Origin: a virus
Lineage: Duplodnaviria; Heunggongvirae; Uroviricota; Caudoviricetes
Direction: 5' to 3' (one strand)
DNA: 11,691 nucleotides
Virus record (IMG/VR): IMGVR_UViG_3300011952_000006
The notes beneath the pieces are model-generated. The model did no database searches. It was not told where the DNA came from and saw nothing but the letters and a program-made list of their open reading frames with translations. A program made the translations under genes and the position numbers. Positions 524 through 11,479 of the stretch are shown here, piece after piece (within the stretch, counting starts at the first letter, position 1; every line of letters starts with the position of its first letter).

Positions 524-1663
524 TTAACCAAGAATCAGACAACCATGTGCCGGCTTCACTGATGAAACACCCCATGCCAGTCCAACTTCATAGCGCACCT
601 GGCGATACTGACGATACAGTGCAATCTGGAACGTAATCCCTGAAATCGGGTCCGTAACATTCATTACATCATCAGCATTATCGCCACCTTCCGGCATTGC
701 CGGAGTACGGGATGCCAGCAGAAACGCGTTGCGATCAAACGCCATATTTGCCGTAAAGGCCCCAACAACTGTGATGGCAGTATCATCGGCCAGATCCTGA
801 CGCAGTCCGGGCGCTGCAAGAGTAATCAGATTGCTGGTCGCTGCTGCCACAACATACTGATTCGGATCGCCAGCGAACGTAACAATCTGACCTGCAGAAA
901 TACTCCCCGAACCAGTATCAATGGAAATAAGAACATCGCCTTCTTTTTTCTCTCCATTCACGAGATAACCAGTTGCAGCAACCTTTGGCGCTCGTTTCAC
1001 ACCTGCCGAACTGTGAATATTGAATCCCTCCAGACGCCCCAACACGCCCTCACGCAGTAGCTGTTCAGTGCCGGATTCATTCACTTTAAACAATACAGAC
1101 TGTTTTCCGCGCAAATTAGCAATGGCAGTGGAGCCAAGCACCATCTGCAGATCGGTTGTCGGTGCGCCGTTATCCTCCAGAACCTGACGAGCCAGAGCAG
1201 CATCAGAAAGATCATCTTTAACACCAAACGGCGTTGTCCCTGCGGTTCCCACGGCGCGGGAAGCACCGAAATACAACGCACCAAGATCAGCCTCAACCTC
1301 GTTTGCAAGGGCGCGAAAAGCCTGCTTGAACTGATCAGCCAGAATGGTGTTGTAAGTCCCTGAAGGGCCAAGAGCCAGTTGTTCTTCACCATTCCATTTA
1401 ACCGGTGCCATTTTGGATTTAGTAATTTTTACATCAACAGTGCCAATATTTTGATCACCGGTATTCGGAGCTGACGGCCCCGGTACGATATCTTCGGTTT
1501 TCGCCTCAGGCGCAACTGGCGCGGTTACCGTCTGATCTTTTGCTGCGGCGTCAGCTTTTGCGTTTTTTGCTACCGCAGGGATAAAACCTACCTGCTCACG
1601 GGATACAACATCCAGGGCGGTATAAATAGTCGGGATCAACCCGGTCAGGGTATTTCCAGCCAT
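524..1663 (-). CDS. Major capsid protein, 379 aa from MAGNTLTGL... (HK97-fold-type coat of an SPP1-like head module)
   Basis: ORF track 524..1756; start trimmed to ATG 1663..1661 (residue 32, MAGNTL) with AAGGA upstream. Size and position directly after the scaffold gene; Ala/Pro/Lys-rich N-arm linker; followed by a strong terminator. Family assignment is by context, not a search. Confidence 0.75.
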   Translation of the reverse strand: MAGNTLTGLIPTIYTALDVVSREQVGFIPAVAKNAKADAAAKDQTVTAPVAPEAKTEDIVPGPSAPNTGDQNIGTVDVKITKSKMAPVKWNGEEQLALGPSGTYNTILADQFKQAFRALANEVEADLGALYFGASRAVGTAGTTPFGVKDDLSDAALARQVLEDNGAPTTDLQMVLGSTAIANLRGKQSVLFKVNESGTEQLLREGVLGRLEGFNIHSSAGVKRAPKVAATGYLVNGEKKEGDVLISIDTGSGSISAGQIVTFAGDPNQYVVAAATSNLITLAAPGLRQDLADDTAITVVGAFTANMAFDRNAFLLASRTPAMPEGGDNADDVMNVTDPISGITFQIALYRQYRQVRYEVGLAWGVSSVKPAHGCLILG

Positions 1664-1761
1664 AATTAAATATTCCTTAAAAATTTGCGTAATTGTGAAT
1701 AGATGGAGTAATGAGCTATCCAGCCCTGACACCAGCTCCCATCCGGAAGCTGACAAATGTG

Positions 1762-2460
1762 TTAATCAACGATTGTGATACCGTCTTTCAATGCGTTTTG
1801 CTTACCTGCAACATCCAGTGCATCAAAAGCAGAGCGTTTCATCGTTTTCTGACCAATATCATGCTGTGTCGGACGGGAGCCGCCGCCATTGTTGCCACTG
1901 GCTTTCAGGATGTAGTCTTTCTGAGGGTAATTTTCGACAAGGAACTCCAGCGCCTCATCAAACTGCGCCAGTTCGCCAGGCTTCGCGCGGGAATAAATTT
2001 TGTTGCCGGAAGCGTCATAAGCAACGATCCTCCCTTCTTCCACTTTGAATGCCTGCCCGAAGCGGGCTTGTAATAAATCTGCCGGGATCGCAATTTTATC
2101 GGCAATATATTTTGAACCCGCAAAACTACCGCCAATCATAGAATCGTAAAGCTGCTTCTCCAGCATCTGAGAGCGTTGCTTTTCTTCATCTAATTGCTGC
2201 TGAAAATTTTTCGTAATTTCTGCCTTAACCTGGTCAACCTGTCCCGCATCGAGCAGCTTTTTCTGGTCGATTTTTGACAGCATTTCCAGTGCCTCGATCG
2301 CCTTCTTCGGGTCTTCGATAGCGGCAAACTTAGCCAGTTTTTCCTCTGCAGCTTCTTTAGCCAGGCGATGATTTTTTGCCTCGCCATTAAGCTCTGTAAT
2401 TTTTTTTGTCGCCAGCGGTGCATCGAAGCCGATTTCTTTACCATCGTCGTGCAGTATCAA
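1762..2460 (-). CDS. Putative capsid scaffolding protein (coiled-coil, charged), 232 aa as listed. The listed start is a TTG; the true N-terminus is probably an out-of-frame ATG at 2506 (see findings)
   Basis: ORF track; Lys/Glu/Gln-rich coiled-coil-like composition; lies between the Mu-F-like gene and the major capsid gene. No in-frame ATG until residue 60. An ATG at 2506..2504 with AGGT RBS opens a 22-codon frame (MKLKTVEINGKQYAEIDTARRW*) that is out of frame with the long ORF. Confidence 0.6.
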   Translation of the reverse strand: MILHDDGKEIGFDAPLATKKITELNGEAKNHRLAKEAAEEKLAKFAAIEDPKKAIEALEMLSKIDQKKLLDAGQVDQVKAEITKNFQQQLDEEKQRSQMLEKQLYDSMIGGSFAGSKYIADKIAIPADLLQARFGQAFKVEEGRIVAYDASGNKIYSRAKPGELAQFDEALEFLVENYPQKDYILKASGNNGGGSRPTQHDIGQKTMKRSAFDALDVAGKQNALKDGITIVD

Positions 2461-2610: not shown

Positions 2611-3726
2611 TTAAATCCCTGCTTTTCTGAATACCTGTGCATCACGCTCACGGAGCTGCTTCAGCGTCAGCCATTCGCCTTTATCGGTGTAAAATTCATC
2701 TGGCGACATACCACCATCCCGAATCAGCTTTGCTCGGGTTTCCCCCACAATCTGTTTTTGTCTGGTGTAAGGCTGACGCAAAAACCATTCCCTGTAGGTT
2801 GTATCTCCGGCTACCACGCCATCCATGCTGGCCCGCTCAGCCGGGGAAATATCACGAACATCAATACCCAGTTCCTTCGCTGATTTCAGAATGAACGTTT
2901 CCGTTGAGCGGCAGCAGAAATGAATTTTTCCCGGCCCCTGCAAATAAGGCACGCTGTGACCTACAGGTTTATTATTCAGCGTATATTTGAGGCGATCCCT
3001 GATTCGACATTGTGGCGTAGTACGATTATCAAGCGTTGATAACCATTGCTTACCCTTAATCAAATCATTATTCGCGCTGGCAAAACTCTCACGGGCAGTA
3101 GCAGCAAGATGTCCAACCGCTGTTTTTGCAATGCTGGCCGCATTAGCCCGGCTCATCTGCAATGCACCATCCTGAAATCCCTTACTGACATGTCCCCGAA
3201 TTTTTCTTGCGATCTGCTCATTGGTATCCCCCAGCAAAAAACCCTGACGCACCGTATTTGTTATGCGTCTGAGCCGATCCGCCTCAAGATCTGAGGCCCA
3301 CTCACTGAGCAGTCGTCCCTGGAATGGTCGCGCCATTGCAGCGGCATAAAGTGCATCAGGAGAGATACCAACCAGAGGGTGAACATCAGCAACAAAATCA
3401 GGTAGCATAGAATCAAACAGACTTAACTGATAACCAGCCTCATAAATTGCCAGCTCGTTCAGCTCTCCGGAGAGACTGGTAAACATGCTGTTAATAGCAG
3501 TGCGGTTAACCTTTCTGACGCTCGCCAGAAGTGACTCCAGGCGCTTAACGGTAAAATTACCTGGATCGAGGCTGTCCAGTGCTATCAGCAGGCGAGCAGT
3601 AAGTTCCGCATCGCTGTCATTCAGTATTTTCACCATTCTGGCAGCCACGCCAGTGCTATAGCGGGATATCCAGACTGCATGAGCAATTGATTCATCACGC
3701 AGCCGTTCATTCACGGTTTGCATCAT
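2611..3726 (-). CDS. Minor head morphogenesis protein, phage Mu F-like / SPP1 gp7-like, 371 aa
   Basis: ORF track; size and position directly after the portal gene, as in SPP1-type head modules. Start overlaps the portal stop (3707..3709) by about 20 nt, suggesting translational coupling. Confidence 0.8.
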   Translation of the reverse strand: MMQTVNERLRDESIAHAVWISRYSTGVAARMVKILNDSDAELTARLLIALDSLDPGNFTVKRLESLLASVRKVNRTAINSMFTSLSGELNELAIYEAGYQLSLFDSMLPDFVADVHPLVGISPDALYAAAMARPFQGRLLSEWASDLEADRLRRITNTVRQGFLLGDTNEQIARKIRGHVSKGFQDGALQMSRANAASIAKTAVGHLAATARESFASANNDLIKGKQWLSTLDNRTTPQCRIRDRLKYTLNNKPVGHSVPYLQGPGKIHFCCRSTETFILKSAKELGIDVRDISPAERASMDGVVAGDTTYREWFLRQPYTRQKQIVGETRAKLIRDGGMSPDEFYTDKGEWLTLKQLRERDAQVFRKAGI

Positions 3727-5113
3727 TGATTTCCATCAGCATTACACTCTGATTTTTTAATTCATCGATCACTTCCTCTGGACGGGAATCCTGATCGATA
3801 AATTTCAACGCCTGCAACACCCGAACCGCATCAATCTGACGTATATCACCGCCCTGACGCAATGACTGAACAGCCAGCGCGGAGGATGAGTCAAACACCT
3901 GGGCAGATACATCCAGTTCAGTGCGCACATCCACATTGCCACCGCAACTCTCTCCGCTCCATTCCGCCATTATCTGGAGAATATTATCGAGGGCATCTTC
4001 GAGGGAGTTCGCCATTGTATAAAGCGGCGAGTTTTCCTGCATTCGCTCTTCATTAGTCTGATCAACAGATTTGGTGGATGTATTTTCAGCACGCAGAAGT
4101 TTAGCGCCGGCATGACGCATCTGATTTTCCAGCTTCTCAAGTGATGTTTCGCCAGATTCTATCGCTGCGCCACTATGTTCAACATATTCGAGGCCATTTT
4201 TTGTTCTGTCCTCAAAAATCGTAGCGGTGGATGCACCAACCGTCAGTTCTTCATTCCTGTCCAGCCCGTAGGCCACCAGCAATGGAACGCGGGCAACATG
4301 AAGAATATTGTCCTGCTCGCTCTGGCTTTGCCAGTGCTTGATATTCAGCAAGCCAAGATTAAGCAATGGCGGTGTACCACGCATAAATCCTGTTTTCTTC
4401 GTGTACAGTGTTACCAGAGGAATATCATCACGGCTGGTATTCCATGACTCATGAAGCGTCCAGACAGATTCGCCATTAGTGCCTTCGCTACGTCGATAAA
4501 TTTCAACTCGACGGGGCATAATATGGCGGATCTGCTCCACCTTCTTCTGCCCGAAATCATCACCATCAATAATGATGACCTCTTTTATACGCAAATCAGT
4601 GAGAACAACTTTCCCTTTTTCAACTTTCGATTTCCATCCAATAACCTGGCGTGGATTCAGCATCGTAACGTACGGACGACCACCGGTCGCGTTTTCATCG
4701 GCTTTTGTACGAATCTCTTTCATATCCGTTCGTGGATAGTCCACCAGCGCATGTGCCACACCATACTGAAATGCGAGGCTGAAAAATTGCTGCGCCCACA
4801 CATCCAGTCGGCTCCCCTCCATGTCGATATTTTCTGCATATTCCCTGATTTTTTCCGGCGTTTCCTCACTCAATACTGTCGGCTCTGCAAATATGCGCCC
4901 AATATTTTGCTTGATGCTTTCTTCATACACAGGAAGTAGCGTAGCCACAGACAGGCGTTTTTTATAAGCGTCTTCATCTTCATTAGGCCATTTGGGGAGA
5001 TAATTTTCCCCCTGCCTGCGCATTTCAAGCGTACCGCCCATCAATGCGTCGTTAATATCCCACGCCTCCAGCATATCGTTATAGTCGAGGTTGGGTGTTG
5101 ATATATCAGCCAT
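3707..5113 (-). CDS. Portal protein, 468 aa
   Basis: ORF track; size and position immediately after the terminase large subunit (TAA-tt-ATG junction at 5116/5113). Conserved terminase-portal-minor head order. Confidence 0.85.
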   Translation of the reverse strand: MADISTPNLDYNDMLEAWDINDALMGGTLEMRRQGENYLPKWPNEDEDAYKKRLSVATLLPVYEESIKQNIGRIFAEPTVLSEETPEKIREYAENIDMEGSRLDVWAQQFFSLAFQYGVAHALVDYPRTDMKEIRTKADENATGGRPYVTMLNPRQVIGWKSKVEKGKVVLTDLRIKEVIIIDGDDFGQKKVEQIRHIMPRRVEIYRRSEGTNGESVWTLHESWNTSRDDIPLVTLYTKKTGFMRGTPPLLNLGLLNIKHWQSQSEQDNILHVARVPLLVAYGLDRNEELTVGASTATIFEDRTKNGLEYVEHSGAAIESGETSLEKLENQMRHAGAKLLRAENTSTKSVDQTNEERMQENSPLYTMANSLEDALDNILQIMAEWSGESCGGNVDVRTELDVSAQVFDSSSALAVQSLRQGGDIRQIDAVRVLQALKFIDQDSRPEEVIDELKNQSVMLMEINDANRE

Positions 5114-5115
5114 AA

Positions 5116-6417
5116 TTAAATCCGAAGTGATGTGACTCTTCCGGTCGGTTTGACAATAGGGAATTGCTTAACGATGAAATAACCTCCGGCATCATTCGGG
5201 TGATCATTGCCAGATTTTTTATCAGGCTCCCCCTTCTCATCCCAGACCTGTTGCTCCAGAGATTCGGCATATAACGGGCAACGCTTCACATTAACTTTAT
5301 AGCGACGCTCACCATTGGCATTGCAGAACATTGCATTCATTGAGTTAACGCGATCTTTTACTGGCGGGTTCGAGCTGTTCACCACAACGTTAAAACCAGC
5401 CTGCTTAAGCTGGGCTATATCCGTCGTACTTGCGTTACTTGATTTTCTGGAATCCCCGGAAGCATCTGGATAAATATAAATTTCCCTCACTTTCCGGTAA
5501 TCATTCCCATCATACAGCCAGAAGCGTTCTTTAATGATGCGGATCATATCCGGCGTATCGTAGGCATTGATGATTTCAGTTACCGCACATGGAAGCCCCA
5601 AACGCAGCACATGGACGATCCCCGCCATCTTTCCAACGTTAAAATCCATCCCAATATAAATCGGCTCCCCTGGCTGCTCCACTTCTTCGCAATTATTCAG
5701 TTTCCGGTCAAACTGATGGTAAACAGTACCACTTGTCAGGTTAGTAAACTGTCCTCGAAGATAGGCTTTAATCAGCTCTGGAGGGTATGATTCAAGAAGC
5801 GAAGGAATGTAATCTGCTGGCAGGTTCTTTTCATTATCGAAAGTAGATGCCTGCACCAGACCATACAGTGAGGCCAGCTCTGTTTTTTCACGCACGGCTT
5901 TAACAAACTGCTCGTAGACAAATTTGAATCCTTCCGGCGTGGTTGTAACGTCAATACCGTTGCGAAGTCCATCAATCTTATAACGCATACGTGCAATTAT
6001 CTTGCGCCACGCCGTTCTGGCTTTTTCCTTCGGCAAAATGTCCAGTTCATCCACCAACGCATTACCAATTTTGAAACCGACGATCGTTTGTGGCTTCTCC
6101 ATCGATCTGCAGATAGTGGTTCCCCGATACTGGCGTCCGTAATAAAAGTGAACCTCTTTATTTCCCTCATTAATTTTTACGTTCAATCCCCAGTCAGCAG
6201 CAACTTCTTCCACTGTAGGGTAAAAAATATCGCGAATTTGGGGATACGTTGGCGCAAAATATCCCTGATTTATACCTGGATGCTCCCAAATCCCCTTGCA
6301 TATGCCGCCACACCCAACCCATGTTTTGCCCGAGCCAAAACCAGCAATATAGGCTTTAAATTTATGGGGCATTGAAAGAAATCGCGCCTGAGGCACATTA
6401 AGCGTCGGAGAGATCAT
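5116..6417 (-). CDS. terL: Terminase large subunit (PBSX XtmB / Terminase_3-like)
   Basis: Walker A P-loop AGFGSGKTW near the N-terminus; C-terminal nuclease-like acidic motifs (IYIGMDFN, YIYPDASGD). ORF track 5116..6426 begins with GTG; preferred start is ATG 6417..6415 (MISPTLNV) with AAGGAG 8 nt upstream. Overlaps the terS stop by about 20 nt. Confidence 0.9.
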   Translation of the reverse strand: MISPTLNVPQARFLSMPHKFKAYIAGFGSGKTWVGCGGICKGIWEHPGINQGYFAPTYPQIRDIFYPTVEEVAADWGLNVKINEGNKEVHFYYGRQYRGTTICRSMEKPQTIVGFKIGNALVDELDILPKEKARTAWRKIIARMRYKIDGLRNGIDVTTTPEGFKFVYEQFVKAVREKTELASLYGLVQASTFDNEKNLPADYIPSLLESYPPELIKAYLRGQFTNLTSGTVYHQFDRKLNNCEEVEQPGEPIYIGMDFNVGKMAGIVHVLRLGLPCAVTEIINAYDTPDMIRIIKERFWLYDGNDYRKVREIYIYPDASGDSRKSSNASTTDIAQLKQAGFNVVVNSSNPPVKDRVNSMNAMFCNANGERRYKVNVKRCPLYAESLEQQVWDEKGEPDKKSGNDHPNDAGGYFIVKQFPIVKPTGRVTSLRI

Positions 6418-7492
6418 CTTCATCACTCCTTACTCTGGCATCAACCACATTAATATTGATCGCCACAGGCTGGGGATGTTCATTATCTTCCACCGTTTCG
6501 ATCTCTTTGCCCAGCTTCTGGTTTTCCATTCTGCGTCGTTCAATTTCCAGTTCCTGTAGCCGTTTATCTGCACATAAAGCCCCGCCAGCAGAAAACAAAC
6601 GCAACAATTCACGCCGGGCGGCAGCCTTATCCTCCAGCAGGATCTCAACGCCGAATTTTCCGAATTTTGCCCCTGCATATAATTGCCGCGCATCCCCATC
6701 AAGCAGAGTGGTATCAGCCATATAAAGCTGTCCCGTTCCCTCACCGCAGCACTTCGGGCAGTCCGGATTGGGTATGGCGTTATCAACAAAGCCGAGGCCT
6801 CCATATTCCGGTTCGGGTTTGCCATCTCTGGAAGCCTGCGCCGCTGCCTTGTCGAATTCTGCTATATCGCGCCACTGGTAGAGATGATTCTCGCCCCAGC
6901 AATAACGGCAGTTAACACGGCGAAATTGTGCAAGCTGATTGGGGTCGGCCAGGACAATAGCCATCAACTGACTCACTAGTAAATCCAGGTCTGCGGTATA
7001 GCGTTTCTGGTACTGATTGCGGAAGTAGCTGATAGCGCGAAAAACCCTGGCATTTCTAAGCATACGACTGGCGTTGCTGTTAGCTGTCGCACCTTGCCCC
7101 TCATAACCGGCTAGTCGGTACGCCTCTGTCGGCTTTTTACCCTGAGCAACAAGCATCGCAAACTTAGCCTGCTGGTCAGAAATGCCGAATTCATCGGGAC
7201 AGAACGAAAATTCCTCCGCGTCGCCCTCATTCAGGCCCGCATCGAATACTGGCTTTTTTTCCTGAGATTTTTCGTTCCGCTTTTGTGCAGTCTGCGCAGA
7301 TTTTTTCTGCGCACTTTTTTGCGCAGTTTTGCGCATTTCTGTCTGCGCATTTTTCGGAGGTTTTTTGATGTAACGACGGGCTGTTGCGTAATTCAGTCCC
7401 CTTGCTTCACACCATGCCACCGGAGATATACCGGAGCGGGTGTATTCAGCAATATACTCCTGCTGCAACGCCCCCCAGTCCGGTCTGCTCAT
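6398..7492 (-). CDS. terS: Terminase small subunit, unusually long (364 aa): N-terminal HTH, Terminase_2-like core (EAYRLAGYEGQGATANSNASRMLRNARVFRAI), Cys4 zinc-ribbon-like motif (CRYC...CPKCC), acidic C-terminal tail
   Basis: ORF track; motif pattern recalled for Terminase_2-family small subunits; sits directly upstream of and overlapping terL; AGGA RBS 8 nt upstream of ATG 7492. Confidence 0.75.
   Translation of the reverse strand: MSRPDWGALQQEYIAEYTRSGISPVAWCEARGLNYATARRYIKKPPKNAQTEMRKTAQKSAQKKSAQTAQKRNEKSQEKKPVFDAGLNEGDAEEFSFCPDEFGISDQQAKFAMLVAQGKKPTEAYRLAGYEGQGATANSNASRMLRNARVFRAISYFRNQYQKRYTADLDLLVSQLMAIVLADPNQLAQFRRVNCRYCWGENHLYQWRDIAEFDKAAAQASRDGKPEPEYGGLGFVDNAIPNPDCPKCCGEGTGQLYMADTTLLDGDARQLYAGAKFGKFGVEILLEDKAAARRELLRLFSAGGALCADKRLQELEIERRRMENQKLGKEIETVEDNEHPQPVAININVVDARVRSDEDDLSDA
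7284..7360. repeat. Phased direct repeats of the palindromic hexamer TGCGCA (5 exact copies plus one TGTGCA), each followed by a T-tract, inside the 5-prime part of terS
   Basis: Copies start at 7293, 7308, 7320, 7330 and 7344, with a variant at 7284; spacing 10-15 bp. On the coding strand they encode the Ala-Gln-Lys repeat segment of TerS (KTAQKSAQKKSAQTAQK). Confidence 0.8.
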
Positions 7493-7495
7493 CAG

Positions 7496-7747
7496 TTAGT
7501 CCTGATTTTTATCCACCCTGAGTAGTTCGCGCAGAGCAAAGGCATCCCCTTTTCTGGCAAGCTTAAACAATGCCGCTCGTAACTCGGCTTCACCTTTCGC
7601 TCTGCCCTTACGGATGGCCGCATAAAAATCTGTCATTGCTTCCCGATTTTCTTTCAGTCGGTTCAGATCAACATCCAGAACGTCAGCGATTTGTTGTGCA
7701 GTCATCCGGCACGCTGCCAGAGACTCGACTTTCGAATACGGAATCAT
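7496..7747 (-). CDS. Small putative DNA-binding protein (HTH-like, 83 aa) immediately upstream of terS
   Basis: ORF track; ATG 7747..7745 with extended SD-like GGGGGTGA 3 nt upstream; stop 3 nt before the terS ATG. Its 5-prime end overlaps the 3-prime end of the glycosyltransferase-like gene by 65 nt (23 nt if the start is Met15 at 7705). Basic, helix-rich sequence (MTAQQIADVLDV...AALFKLARKG). Confidence 0.5.
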   Translation of the reverse strand: MIPYSKVESLAACRMTAQQIADVLDVDLNRLKENREAMTDFYAAIRKGRAKGEAELRAALFKLARKGDAFALRELLRVDKNQD

Positions 7748-8615
7748 TTGTCACCCCCATTGATATGCAGGGTGTCTTCTTCCTGTATTTTTCGTGAAGG
7801 ATTTTTACTGCAGCGTTGTTCCAGGTGACCTGATGGTGAATGCGTTTATGGCTGGCACCCATCAGTGAGATTTTTACGCACGACGGCGCATACATGACGG
7901 AGTAAAAACTTTTAACGTAGGTTCCGGAATCCAGATACAGCTCGGTCATTCCGCCGCTGTTTTTCTGCGTCTGTTTCTGCCCTAACTGGACAGCACCGAT
8001 CGTCATAAACAATTCACCACAGCGACCGAGATTCGTGTACGTATTCACATCCTCGTTAATGCGCCCCATGAATGAGAACGGTCGATCAACCGAACAGATA
8101 AAGCTGTTCATTGCCTTGCGTTTCACCCACGAAGCATGGCCGCCATTGTCACCAAGAAAATCCCCGCCCTGCGACATAGCGATGGAAAGAGCAGGTATTG
8201 ATTCGTAGTACGCCAGCATTTCAGAAAGGATCGCATCCAGTTTCCTTATCGGAAAATAGGCCTGGTCATAGTTGCGATCCACCCGAAACTGGAACTCGTG
8301 ATAATCATCATCGAGCTGAATGAAGTATTTACACCCGACCAGTTTTGCCAGGTCGAAACAGGCATTACGGGCGTAAAAAATTGAGCGGCGGTCACAGAAA
8401 TTATCGGCTTCGTCAAAACGACTGGCGATATCGGCTTTGGAAAACACCAGCACCTGTTCACCAAATTCAGCCATGTACTGATGCCGTGTCTTATCTTCAT
8501 CATCAACAACGATAAAAATTTTCCCGGTATAGCCAGCACGACGCAACGTCCGGTAAGTCAGAACTTTGTCCGGTCGCCCGTGAGTCAGAATAAAGGCGCA
8601 AAAATCATCACGCAT
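7683..8615 (-). CDS. Soluble GT-A-fold (nucleotide-diphospho-sugar transferase superfamily) glycosyltransferase-like protein, about 310 aa from MRDDFCAF...
   Basis: ORF track 7683..8636; start trimmed to ATG 8615..8613, 3 nt after a strong GAGGAGGAGG RBS. N-terminal strand-turn pattern FILTHGRPDKV...GKIFIVVDDED resembles the GT2 signature (xIPTYNRPxxL...IVVDDGS); ARNAC..LAKLVGCKYFIQLDDDYHEF gives a DxD-like motif. No hydrophobic TM segments. No methyltransferase motifs (DPPY/NPPY, FxGxG). Confidence 0.6.
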   Translation of the reverse strand: MRDDFCAFILTHGRPDKVLTYRTLRRAGYTGKIFIVVDDEDKTRHQYMAEFGEQVLVFSKADIASRFDEADNFCDRRSIFYARNACFDLAKLVGCKYFIQLDDDYHEFQFRVDRNYDQAYFPIRKLDAILSEMLAYYESIPALSIAMSQGGDFLGDNGGHASWVKRKAMNSFICSVDRPFSFMGRINEDVNTYTNLGRCGELFMTIGAVQLGQKQTQKNSGGMTELYLDSGTYVKSFYSVMYAPSCVKISLMGASHKRIHHQVTWNNAAVKILHEKYRKKTPCISMGVTNDSVFESRVSGSVPDDCTTNR

Positions 8616-9353
8616 ATTCCTCCTCCTCACCACCATGCATGATCTCCACCATGCGCTGCGTCATCCGGACAAATCCATTTTCAATAGCCTGCTGATAATC
8701 AATGATCACCAGCGCCGACTCCTCGAAAAAACACTGAATTTCAGAGGGGGCGTGAGCGTAATAGTCCGCAATTCTGCTGAAATTAAACACCGTGNNNNNN
8801 NNNNACGTATCCGGCTGATCAGCTCCTGAGTTTTCGTATCGTCGTACAGTTCACTGATATCCGGTTTACCGCCCGACGGCTCATAAACAGGCGTATCAAT
8901 TTTCGTCGTATACGGCTCCTCCTCATTTCCTGTACCGGGCAAAACATCCGTCAACAGTTCATCAATTTCTGTCGGGATGAAGCCTGTCAGGGAGACATCA
9001 AAATCAGCATTGATTAGGTCCGACAGCTCCATCCGCAACAGATCTTCATCCCAGCCAGCATTCATCGGCAGGCGATTATCTGCCAGGCGGTACGCCTTTT
9101 TCTGCTCATCCGTCAGGCCAGACAGAACAATGACCGGAACAGAATCCATTTTGAGCATTTCAGCCGCCATAACACGACCGTGACCCGCAATAATTTCGCC
9201 CTTTTCATCAATCAGCACCGGATTAGTCCAGCCGAATTGCTTAATACTTTCTACCAGTTGTGCCACCTGCTCAGGGCTGTGTGTCCTGGCATTGTGTGCA
9301 TACGGAGACAGTTCTTGTAACGGGCGATAGACGATCTTCAATTTCTCGCTCAT
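8608..9353 (-). CDS. ParB/Srx-like N-terminal (nuclease-type) domain protein with an uncharacterised C-terminal region; interrupted by a 10-N assembly gap
   Basis: ORF track 8706..9353; ATG 9353..9351 with GAGG RBS. N-terminal ParB/Srx-type motifs (YAHNARTHSPEQV, IIAGHGRVMAAEML). The frame that is open from the gap down to stop 8610..8608 (ORF track 8608..8790, opening with GTG next to the gap) is the likely true C-terminus, ...MHGGEEEEYA. The stop overlaps the downstream glycosyltransferase-like start as ATGCGTGA. Confidence 0.7.
8795..8804. other. Assembly gap (10 N) inside the ParB-like gene
   Basis: Run of N characters; true length unknown, so frame continuity across it cannot be assessed. 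Confidence 0.95.
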
Positions 9354-9883: not shown

Positions 9884-9977
9884 NNNNNNNNNNNNNNNNN
9901 NNNNNNNNNNNNNNNNNNNNNNNNNNNNNNNNNNNNNNNNNNNNNNNNNNNNNNNNNNNNNNNNNNNNNNNNNNNNN
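9884..9977. other. Assembly gap (94 N)
   Basis: Run of N characters interrupting a minus-strand gene; missing sequence of unknown content. Confidence 0.95.
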
Positions 9978-11134: not shown

Positions 11135-11479
11135 TGCCACCTCCTCCGCCCCGCAGGCGGGAGAACAGACCGGACACCAGTGATGCGATATCCTGCTGGT
11201 GGATGANNNNNNNNNNGCATCTGCCGATGTACCGTCATAACCTGTTTTTGCCGCTATCCAGGCTGACAGCACACGCGCTCCCAGCACGCCGATAATGAAC
11301 GACACCAGAAAATGCGCCGCCACACGCCAGGCTGAAAGCGCCTGCGGCATCGTTGCCACAAATAACGCCCCGGCGAACGCACCAAACACAATCCCGAAAT
11401 CCGTTCCGGTAAACAGCCCGAATACCGTCGCCCCGCCGAGCGCCACAGCCGTGCCGGAACCGGATAAGGGTTCAGACAT
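11128..11479 (-). CDS. Holin (class I-like, 3 predicted TM helices), interrupted by a 10-N gap
   Basis: ATG 11479..11477 with AGGAG RBS (caggagaaaaaagtATG). N-terminal part MSEPLSGSGTAVALGGATVFGLFTGTDFGIVFGAFAGALFVATMPQALSAWRVAAHFLVSFIIGVLGARVLSAWIAAKTGYDGTSAD. After the gap the most protein-like frame ends ...GVRSVLPPAGRRRWQC with TAA 11130..11128 overlapping the next gene's ATG. The ORF-track extension to 11602 is probably spurious. Confidence 0.6.
11207..11216. other. Assembly gap (10 N) inside the holin gene
   Basis: Run of N characters; length unknown. Confidence 0.95.

Follow-up and report, generated by a model that had tools for sequence, protein, structure and literature searches.

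A hexamer array within the small terminase gene of a Rac-like prophage is probably a P1-type pac recognition site

How a small terminase (TerS) recognizes the pac site at which packaging begins is poorly understood; few pac sites have been defined, and that of ES18 is still unknown (PMC11260489). The question is raised by the viral record IMGVR_UViG_3300011952_000006, a stretch of 11,691 nucleotides (nt), hereafter the window, which represents the late region of a Rac-like lambdoid Escherichia coli prophage; every gene in it lies on the minus strand. The 5' part of its small terminase gene (terS) contains a dense cluster of the palindromic hexamer TGCGCA. An earlier note on this DNA had proposed that the cluster is a TerS-binding or pac element, or else the nucleotide trace of the Ala-Gln-Lys (AQK) repeat linker encoded there. 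Comparison with relatives supports the first proposal through conservation at the DNA level, homology of the N-terminal helix-turn-helix (HTH) domain of TerS to that of P1 PacA, and the equivalent array in P1. Judging from these sequences, the array is probably the recognition part of the prophage's pac site, a P1-type TerS-binding array with a new specificity.

The array consists of six elements in 66 bp: exact TGCGCA copies at 7293, 7308, 7320, 7330 and 7344, and a TGTGCA variant at 7284, with start-to-start spacings of 9, 15, 12, 10 and 14 bp (mean 12). The five exact copies and one variant reported earlier are therefore borne out. A T-tract had been described after every copy, which holds on the plus strand for five of the six elements and fails for the TGTGCA variant; the spacing of 10–15 bp given earlier was nearly right (9–15 bp), though it is irregular, and the helical phasing is merely approximate. 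The A/T tracts may simply be Lys/Asn/Gln-rich spacer sequence. Across the window TGCGCA is not enriched (8 copies against 6.0 ± 2.4 expected), and it is its clustering that is non-random: five copies fall within 57 bp, and in 2000 dinucleotide-preserving shuffles a maximum of three copies within 60 bp was reached, once, with four or more in none of the 2000. On the coding strand, the array occupies nt 144–209 of the 1095 nt of terS (codons 48–70). Four of the exact copies read xxT-GCG-CAr (Ala-Gln) and one is in a different frame, so that the five copies lie in frames 2, 1, 2, 2 and 2. Thirty-three distinct versions of the array were found in close relatives, with 4–6 copies each; six exact copies are the commonest state, which makes the window's TGTGCA (TGCACA) a decayed sixth copy. 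Among 28 indel-free haplotypes of the window clade, the proportion of variable columns is 11% in the HTH, 14% in the hexamers, 21% in the spacers and 43% in the next 200 nt, the difference between hexamers and spacers being too small to be given weight.

Conservation of the repeats was then set against that of the encoded residues, as the earlier note had suggested, and the outcome is unambiguous: the DNA is what is conserved. Klebsiella phages with ~70% nucleotide identity to the window in the N-terminal coding part have six TGCGCA copies at the same place, distributed over all three frames, which encode Ala-Gln four times, Leu-Arg-Thr and Cys-Ala. Of 57 loci from different bacterial species, gathered by a six-sequence alignment search of genome contigs, 41 have 3–7 TGCGCA copies in nt 120–300 of the gene, against a top-hexamer count of 1–3 in a control segment (nt 500–680) of the same genes. 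The 512 linker hexamers of 103 unique TerS open reading frames (ORFs) are divided 412/85/15 over frames 2, 1 and 0, and the out-of-frame copy, read as [MVL]-R-x, recurs among relatives. Synonymous positions in these 103 ORFs are strongly biased: the Ala codon of the linker Ala-Gln is GCG in 407 of 448 cases, compared with 147 of 322 elsewhere in TerS, and the synonymous base before the hexamer is T in 439 of 448, compared with 154 of 322. The residue preceding the linker Ala-Gln is variable (T, S, N, A, P, I, F, G, D or V), and its third codon base is nevertheless T. Relatedness among the sequences inflates the P values for this codon bias, but the effects themselves are large.

Natural variants in which the reading frame of the linker is shifted and later restored point the same way. 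In two of them, one recovered from two samples (P0038 and L016) and the other from L090, the hexamers are kept and the linker encodes an unrelated peptide (...KCAERNAQNCAKKCAKK... and ...NSEKCAERNAQNCAKKCAKKKLRRL...). The sister hexamer TGCGAA is read as Ala-Asn in enterobacterial prophages and as Cys-Glu in Pasteurellaceae phages. Since the hexamers persist whatever the frame, even where a frameshift has changed the linker, the AQK repeat is the protein footprint of the DNA array and not the reverse; judged from these alignments, the protein sequence of the linker is dictated by the DNA hexamers. The linker also contains A-runs of 6–9 bases and is evidently prone to frameshifts. Among the relatives L016, L043, L090, L095, L117, L127 and L149, several have shifted or shortened TerS frames that begin in these A-runs, with the frame regained in L016/P0038 and L090. 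Such changes may be genuine variants, may mark pseudogenes or may stem from sequencing errors in homopolymers.

The proposed reader of the array is the N-terminal domain of TerS itself. Six HTHs of the window type, aligned with the PacA N-termini of P1, D6 and Pantoea, gave an hhalign probability of 98.65% (E 4.7e-16); beyond these 45 PacA-homologous residues, TerS is a Terminase_2 protein and not PacA-like. In the predicted structure, residues 1–45 are helical, with a predicted local distance difference test (pLDDT) of 74–83, residues 55–94 fall below 50, and the Terminase_2 DNA-binding region reaches 66–86. This AlphaFold run used a shallow alignment of 12 sequences and was poor overall (mean pLDDT 48.7), so just the pattern of confidence over domains and linker was used. 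A search of solved structures returned no relative of the large terminase (TerL) in the PDB and, for TerS, a marginal match alone, to the Pam5 small terminase (E 0.22). By tblastn, the N-terminal domain was also found at the start of TerS in Klebsiella, Yersinia and Pasteurella phages and in ~190 Shiga toxin (Stx) phages, including 933W, with a weak match to the 'DNA pacase A subunit' of P1-like plasmids. The HTH and array together head at least three types of TerS body: Terminase_2 (the window, the Klebsiella type and L102), a body with no Pfam match (933W, Pmp11 and L113), and PacA.

In the TerS of Rac-SA53, the HTH is lost and the array has decayed to two intact copies. This gene (L002, KU052037; 3680–3822) is annotated 'gpOterS; fusion of two genes by deletion'; unrelated sequence stands in place of the PacA-type HTH, the junction lies at the array, and two LT-IIa enterotoxin genes are found just upstream. 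An isolated, truncated PacA-type HTH remnant (MTIPDWGEFRQRFLSEHAATGVLPKDWFEAQGWHYATH...) was seen at 1501–1626 of L013, the conjugative IncF plasmid pCTHL.F3a of a Klebsiella sp., with no array or terminase after it. Two features lie farther along the TerS polypeptide. Residues 195–249 (6746–6910), within the Terminase_2 region, contain a four-cysteine motif, CRYCWG...CPKCCGEG, that looks like a zinc ribbon; it is conserved in TerS of the Klebsiella and L108/L147 types and lies where AlphaFold confidence is low. The C-terminus (6398–6600; P0047, P0056, P0073, P0112) exists as two unrelated tails (...LRLFSAGGALCADKRLQELE... and ...IKLIMATKGSSAGGATDSRNDLE...) on proteins that are >85% identical over their first ~295 residues, which suggests mosaic exchange of the segment that would be expected to interact with TerL.

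The phage P1 provides the closest known counterpart. P1 pac is a 161-bp site inside pacA, composed of seven TGATCA/G repeats (HEX4 and HEX3), a site for integration host factor (IHF) and a cleavage site (PMC10028697; see also PMC11260489), and synonymous mutation of its hexamers cut packaging ~9-fold (PMC10028697). In the annotated P1 pacA, TGATCA/G occurs at nt 193, 200, 212 and 227 (frames 1, 2, 2 and 2; span 193–232), followed by the IHF site at nt 255–267, the pac cuts at nt 275–284 and further hexamers at nt 323, 335 and 346 (to 351). The window resembles P1 in having its array in the 5' part of the gene for the small terminase or pacase A, right after a homologous N-terminal HTH, in the use of a palindromic hexamer in several copies at short, irregular spacing (9–15 bp, compared with 7, 12 and 15 bp in P1), and in the presence of copies in more than one reading frame. 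There are also differences. The P1 hexamer TGATCA/G includes a Dam site, whereas the window hexamer is TGCGCA and no GATC occurs within the array, so Dam methylation cannot gate cleavage. P1 has 4 + 3 hexamers flanking the cut and the window clade a single arm of 5–6 copies; the array begins ~10 nt after the HTH in the window and ~70 nt after it in P1; and the HTH is followed by a Terminase_2 TerS in the former and by the PacA body in the latter. With no Dam site, no second arm and no IHF consensus, the array is a variant of the P1 kind rather than a strict member of the P1 pac family.

Related arrays occur in other phages. The TerS of Klebsiella/Enterobacter-type prophages (~330 residues, Terminase_2; for example Klebsiella phage ST405-OXA48phi1.3 and phage 5 LV-2017) has an HTH 58–64% identical to that of the window, with the same hexamer and array position; its six copies are followed by a second group of 2–3 at nt 347–397, a P1-like two-arm layout that the window clade lacks. 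Second arms are present in the Klebsiella-type, 933W-type and Pasteurella-type relatives. The TerS of Stx phage 933W and its relatives has a homologous HTH (~40% identity), a linker whose DNA likewise holds a hexamer array, a body that differs from that of the window and has no Pfam match, and a recognition helix TARTRIK; in its first arm, YGATCAT occurs four times at intervals of exactly 12 bp, and every copy includes a Dam GATC, like the hexamers of P1 pac. The 933W arrays (L008, AF125520; also L374–L412) lie at terS nt 139–185 and 240–265. The YGATCAT copies encode IDHEIDHKTDHEIDH, and two TGCGCA copies follow ~90 bp downstream of the YGATCAT arm, the first being TGTGCA in AF125520 itself.

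P22, SPP1 and Sf6 had been named earlier as the precedent; P1 is the right one, by the homology of the HTH to PacA and the equivalent hexamer array. In the headful phages Sf6 and SPP1, pac is likewise found inside or beside the gene for the small terminase. P22 has one short asymmetric pac sequence, and SPP1 has several boxes that are intrinsically bent, whereas neither has repeated identical hexamers; to our knowledge, the TerS of P22, Sf6 and SPP1 has no PacA-type N-terminal HTH. The pac site of P22, also a headful phage, has the same kind of location (PMC11260489). Our search of the literature gave P1 background (PMC10028697, PMC11260489) and no description linking TGCGCA repeats to a terminase or a pac site.

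The identity of the hexamer covaries with the recognition helix. Helices of the form TARRYIK are paired with TGCGCA, TAKRYIK with TGCGAA, and TARTRIK of 933W with GATCAT. Over the species loci and a Pasteurella set, TA-R-RY helices accompany TGCGCA in 41 of 43 loci and TA-K-RY helices accompany TGCGAA in 21 of 22, with no crossovers. In an alignment of 118 unique HTHs, a perfect separation of TGCGCA lineages (91, all Arg) from TGCGAA lineages (17, all Lys) is given by residue 39 and by no other column; its mutual information is as high as the class entropy (0.63 bit), and the second-best column has 0.42. The Yersinia HTH of the TGCGAA type is nearer to the Klebsiella TGCGCA type (31 of 45 residues identical) than to the Pasteurella TGCGAA type (24 of 45), so the Arg/Lys difference is not one deep split. 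Within the 933W lineage, TARTRIK occurs with four YGATCAT copies and sister HTHs, 76% identical, have TARRYIK with TGCGCA; a P1-like Pantoea plasmid combines TARRELN with seven TGATCA copies and two more ~170 bp downstream.

INDEPENDENCE from protein homology, an unbiased search for three TGCGCA copies spaced 3–12 bp apart in viral contigs gave at least 120 matches, and among the 120 listed, 71 directly follow a PacA-type HTH start. All 71 of these carry an [ST]ARR[YH] helix; of the other matches listed, two are cut by contig ends and the rest are mostly perfect tandem repeats in unrelated sequence. A scan of IMG/VR with the P1 PacA alignment returned near-identical P1 copies only, with no added diversity. 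Two further groups indicate that the hexamer rule is not universal at the edge of the family: Vibrio P1-like plasmids, with scattered GCGAAA/GCGCAA copies and no clear array, and two distant HTH relatives (L252, L253), in which no array was found. In L256 (IMGVR_UViG_2843860951_000003; 2050–2200), a TerS-like ORF starts with a different N-terminal HTH (...DWHAIEADFRAGALSNRQIAKKHGVAESTLRKRI...) and continues with six TGCGCA copies, so hexamer arrays may not be restricted to the PacA-type domain.

These data bear on four other explanations of the array. That it is a mere nucleotide footprint of a repetitive Ala-Gln-Lys linker agrees with the low complexity of the linker and with the four of five window copies that encode Ala-Gln; it is refuted by the occurrence of hexamers in each of the three frames, by their survival where a frameshifted linker encodes an unrelated peptide, by the fixed synonymous positions, and by the reading of TGCGAA as Ala-Asn or Cys-Glu according to lineage, and has next to no chance of being correct. 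A by-product of slippage or of short-repeat recombination, such as a mosaic joint or a hypervariable tract devoid of sequence-specific function, would explain why copy number ranges from 4 to 7, why A-runs of 6–9 cause frameshifts, and why homology with Rac-SA53 and with the record of an Actinobacillus phage is interrupted within the array. The hexamer is constant and the spacers vary in both sequence and length, so the copies are not tandem duplicates; the hexamer also persists from genus to genus and changes in step with the HTH, which leaves this origin highly improbable.

Two explanations remain. The conserved feature might be an mRNA structure, with hairpins of self-complementary UGCGCA tuning terS translation or terL coupling; the coding-strand RNA of 7270–7375 does fold at −31.7 kcal/mol (z = −4.66, none of 200 shuffles as stable), and the Klebsiella equivalent has z = −3.73. 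Such stability is an automatic by-product of repeating a palindrome, and the sister lineages, in which the non-palindromic TGCGAA takes the place of TGCGCA, have no excess structure (z −0.78, −0.23 and +0.44, with one at −2.36). Copy number and spacing of the hexamers vary freely, so no fixed RNA pairing is preserved, and an mRNA function seems very unlikely. Finally, the array could bind the TerS HTH, or another protein such as the HTH-like product of the 83-residue ORF next to terS, in a regulatory role, either autoregulation of terS/terL or transcription of the late operon. DNA-level conservation and HTH covariation show a protein–DNA recognition pair and not the role of that pair, and the second arm and IHF site of P1 pac are absent. 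However, the homologous P1 array is a packaging site (PMC10028697; annotated cuts), and the module always heads a small terminase subunit, on at least three body types, as fits a role in packaging specificity. A purely regulatory role is thus considered unlikely.

A P1-type recognition array therefore remains the preferred reading, and a mechanism can be proposed for it. TerS carries an extra N-terminal HTH, homologous to that of PacA, and the linker DNA just downstream holds the 5–6 hexamers that this HTH would read. Several HTHs of a TerS oligomer would each bind one hexamer, ~9–15 bp apart on A-rich DNA, and the nucleoprotein complex would form on concatemeric phage DNA. The large terminase, the presumed nuclease and motor, would be recruited to the array and make the initiating cut nearby, after which headful packaging would run in the direction of terS transcription, toward terL and the head genes. 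Binding, cleavage, cut position and packaging direction are all putative.

Several points weigh against this proposal. There is no second arm: in the window and in L097–L100 of the same clade, no further TGCGCA was found in terS or in the 1.5 kb upstream. The IHF consensus WATCAANNNNTTR, with up to one mismatch, has no match in 4913–8318, although a weak site could escape a consensus scan. Copies are often degenerate in single prophages (TGCGTA, TGTGCA or TGCGCG; 4–6 copies), which may reflect decay in defective prophages or a loose constraint. The covariation of Arg/Lys with C/A may reflect few independent events, as the sequences are related, and residue 39 is not by itself a complete code, as P1 combines an ARRY helix with TGATCA hexamers. 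The headful strategy is suggested by gene content only, and we infer a pac function for the TGCGCA-type phages, that of the window included, from sequence comparison.

The features of the window are collected in Table 1.

Table 1. Array, TerS segments and annotated genes of the window
Feature	Position	Strand	Basis or remark
Hexamer array, proposed TerS recognition (pac) array, equivalent of the P1 pac HEX4 arm	7284-7349	.	presence, clustering, DNA-level conservation, position
TGCGCA copy in a different frame, aTG CGC Aaa (Met53-Arg54-Lys55)	7330-7335	-	
TerS codons 1-45, PacA-type N-terminal HTH, recognition helix T37-A-R39-R-Y-I-K43; proposed hexamer reader	7358-7492	-	hhalign, pLDDT 74-83
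TerS codons 46-100, low-complexity linker (PPKNAQTEMRKTAQKSAQKKSAQTAQKRNEKSQEKK...) holding the array	7193-7357	-	pLDDT <50 for residues 55-94
terS, 364 aa: PacA-type HTH, linker, Terminase_2 body	6398-7492	-	
Large terminase (Terminase_6N + Terminase_6C)	5116-6426	-	overlaps terS 3' end
DUF4055 portal	3707-5113	-	
MuF-like protein	2611-3726	-	
Scaffold protein	1762-2460	-	
P22-type coat protein	524-1756	-	
83-aa ORF	7496-7747	-	
TET-associated glycosyltransferase	7683-8636	-	
ParB_N protein	8706-9353	-	

The assignment of terS is supported by a match of its product to Pfam Terminase_2 (PF03592) over residues 122–316, at 34.3 bits against a cut-off of 26.1, and by a phrog_51 match at 3.6e-75. 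Ten phage records are 99.4–99.5% identical to the window over terS, and their annotation and gene order (trkG, ydaY, ydaW) place them in the Rac lineage. In the four Klebsiella and Rac-SA53 records inspected, the gene is annotated only as 'terminase small subunit' or 'hypothetical protein', and no pac site is annotated.

The 83-aa ORF stops 4 nt short of the first codon of terS, and over 7683–7747 its 5' part is shared with the 3' part of the glycosyltransferase ORF. It has no Pfam match and matches phrog_309 'terminase small subunit' at 8.3e-23 (profile positions 145–218 of 319); its product could be a second small DNA-binding packaging protein. The glycosyltransferase matches PF20691 at 3.8e-35 and phrog_842 'beta-glucosyl-HMC-alpha-glucosyltransferase' at 6.9e-104. 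Its gene and that of the ParB_N protein adjoin each other immediately 5' of the terminase genes in this lambdoid prophage, which hints at a putative DNA-modification module; no TET enzyme or methyltransferase is visible within the window, and in the relative L015 the glycosyltransferase is shortened to 83 aa. Masked runs of N (114 bases in total) at 8795–8804, 9884–9977 and 11207–11216 break the ParB_N ORF and two others.

The module is widespread. This exact form is carried by 891 of 5426 complete E. coli genomes, and relatives occur in Klebsiella, Enterobacter, Citrobacter, Serratia, Yersinia, Pasteurella and Stx phages. P1 has the only well-defined pac of the hexamer-array kind, and the finding extends it across a large family of terminases from lambdoid prophages and offers a sequence rule for the probable start of packaging, which helps to predict which chromosomal genes are transduced. 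The paired protein and DNA variants (Arg39 with TGCGCA, Lys39 with TGCGAA) make the recognition question directly testable, and the locus provides a clear example of overlapping codes, the protein linker being constrained by a site in the DNA. A broader reading can be offered tentatively, at somewhat less than even chances: the HTH and the hexamer array in its own linker may be a portable and self-contained packaging-specificity cassette, set on at least three unrelated TerS bodies (Terminase_2, 933W-type and PacA), whose specificity has diversified by a simple code (Arg39 for TGCGCA, Lys39 for TGCGAA, a -TR- helix for GATCAT), with the cis DNA site as the primary target of selection that dictates the linker sequence. 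If so, nature would have supplied a set of specificity variants from which to learn how a small terminase reads pac, and pac sites, together with the starting points of lateral and generalised transduction, would become predictable in about one-sixth of E. coli genomes.

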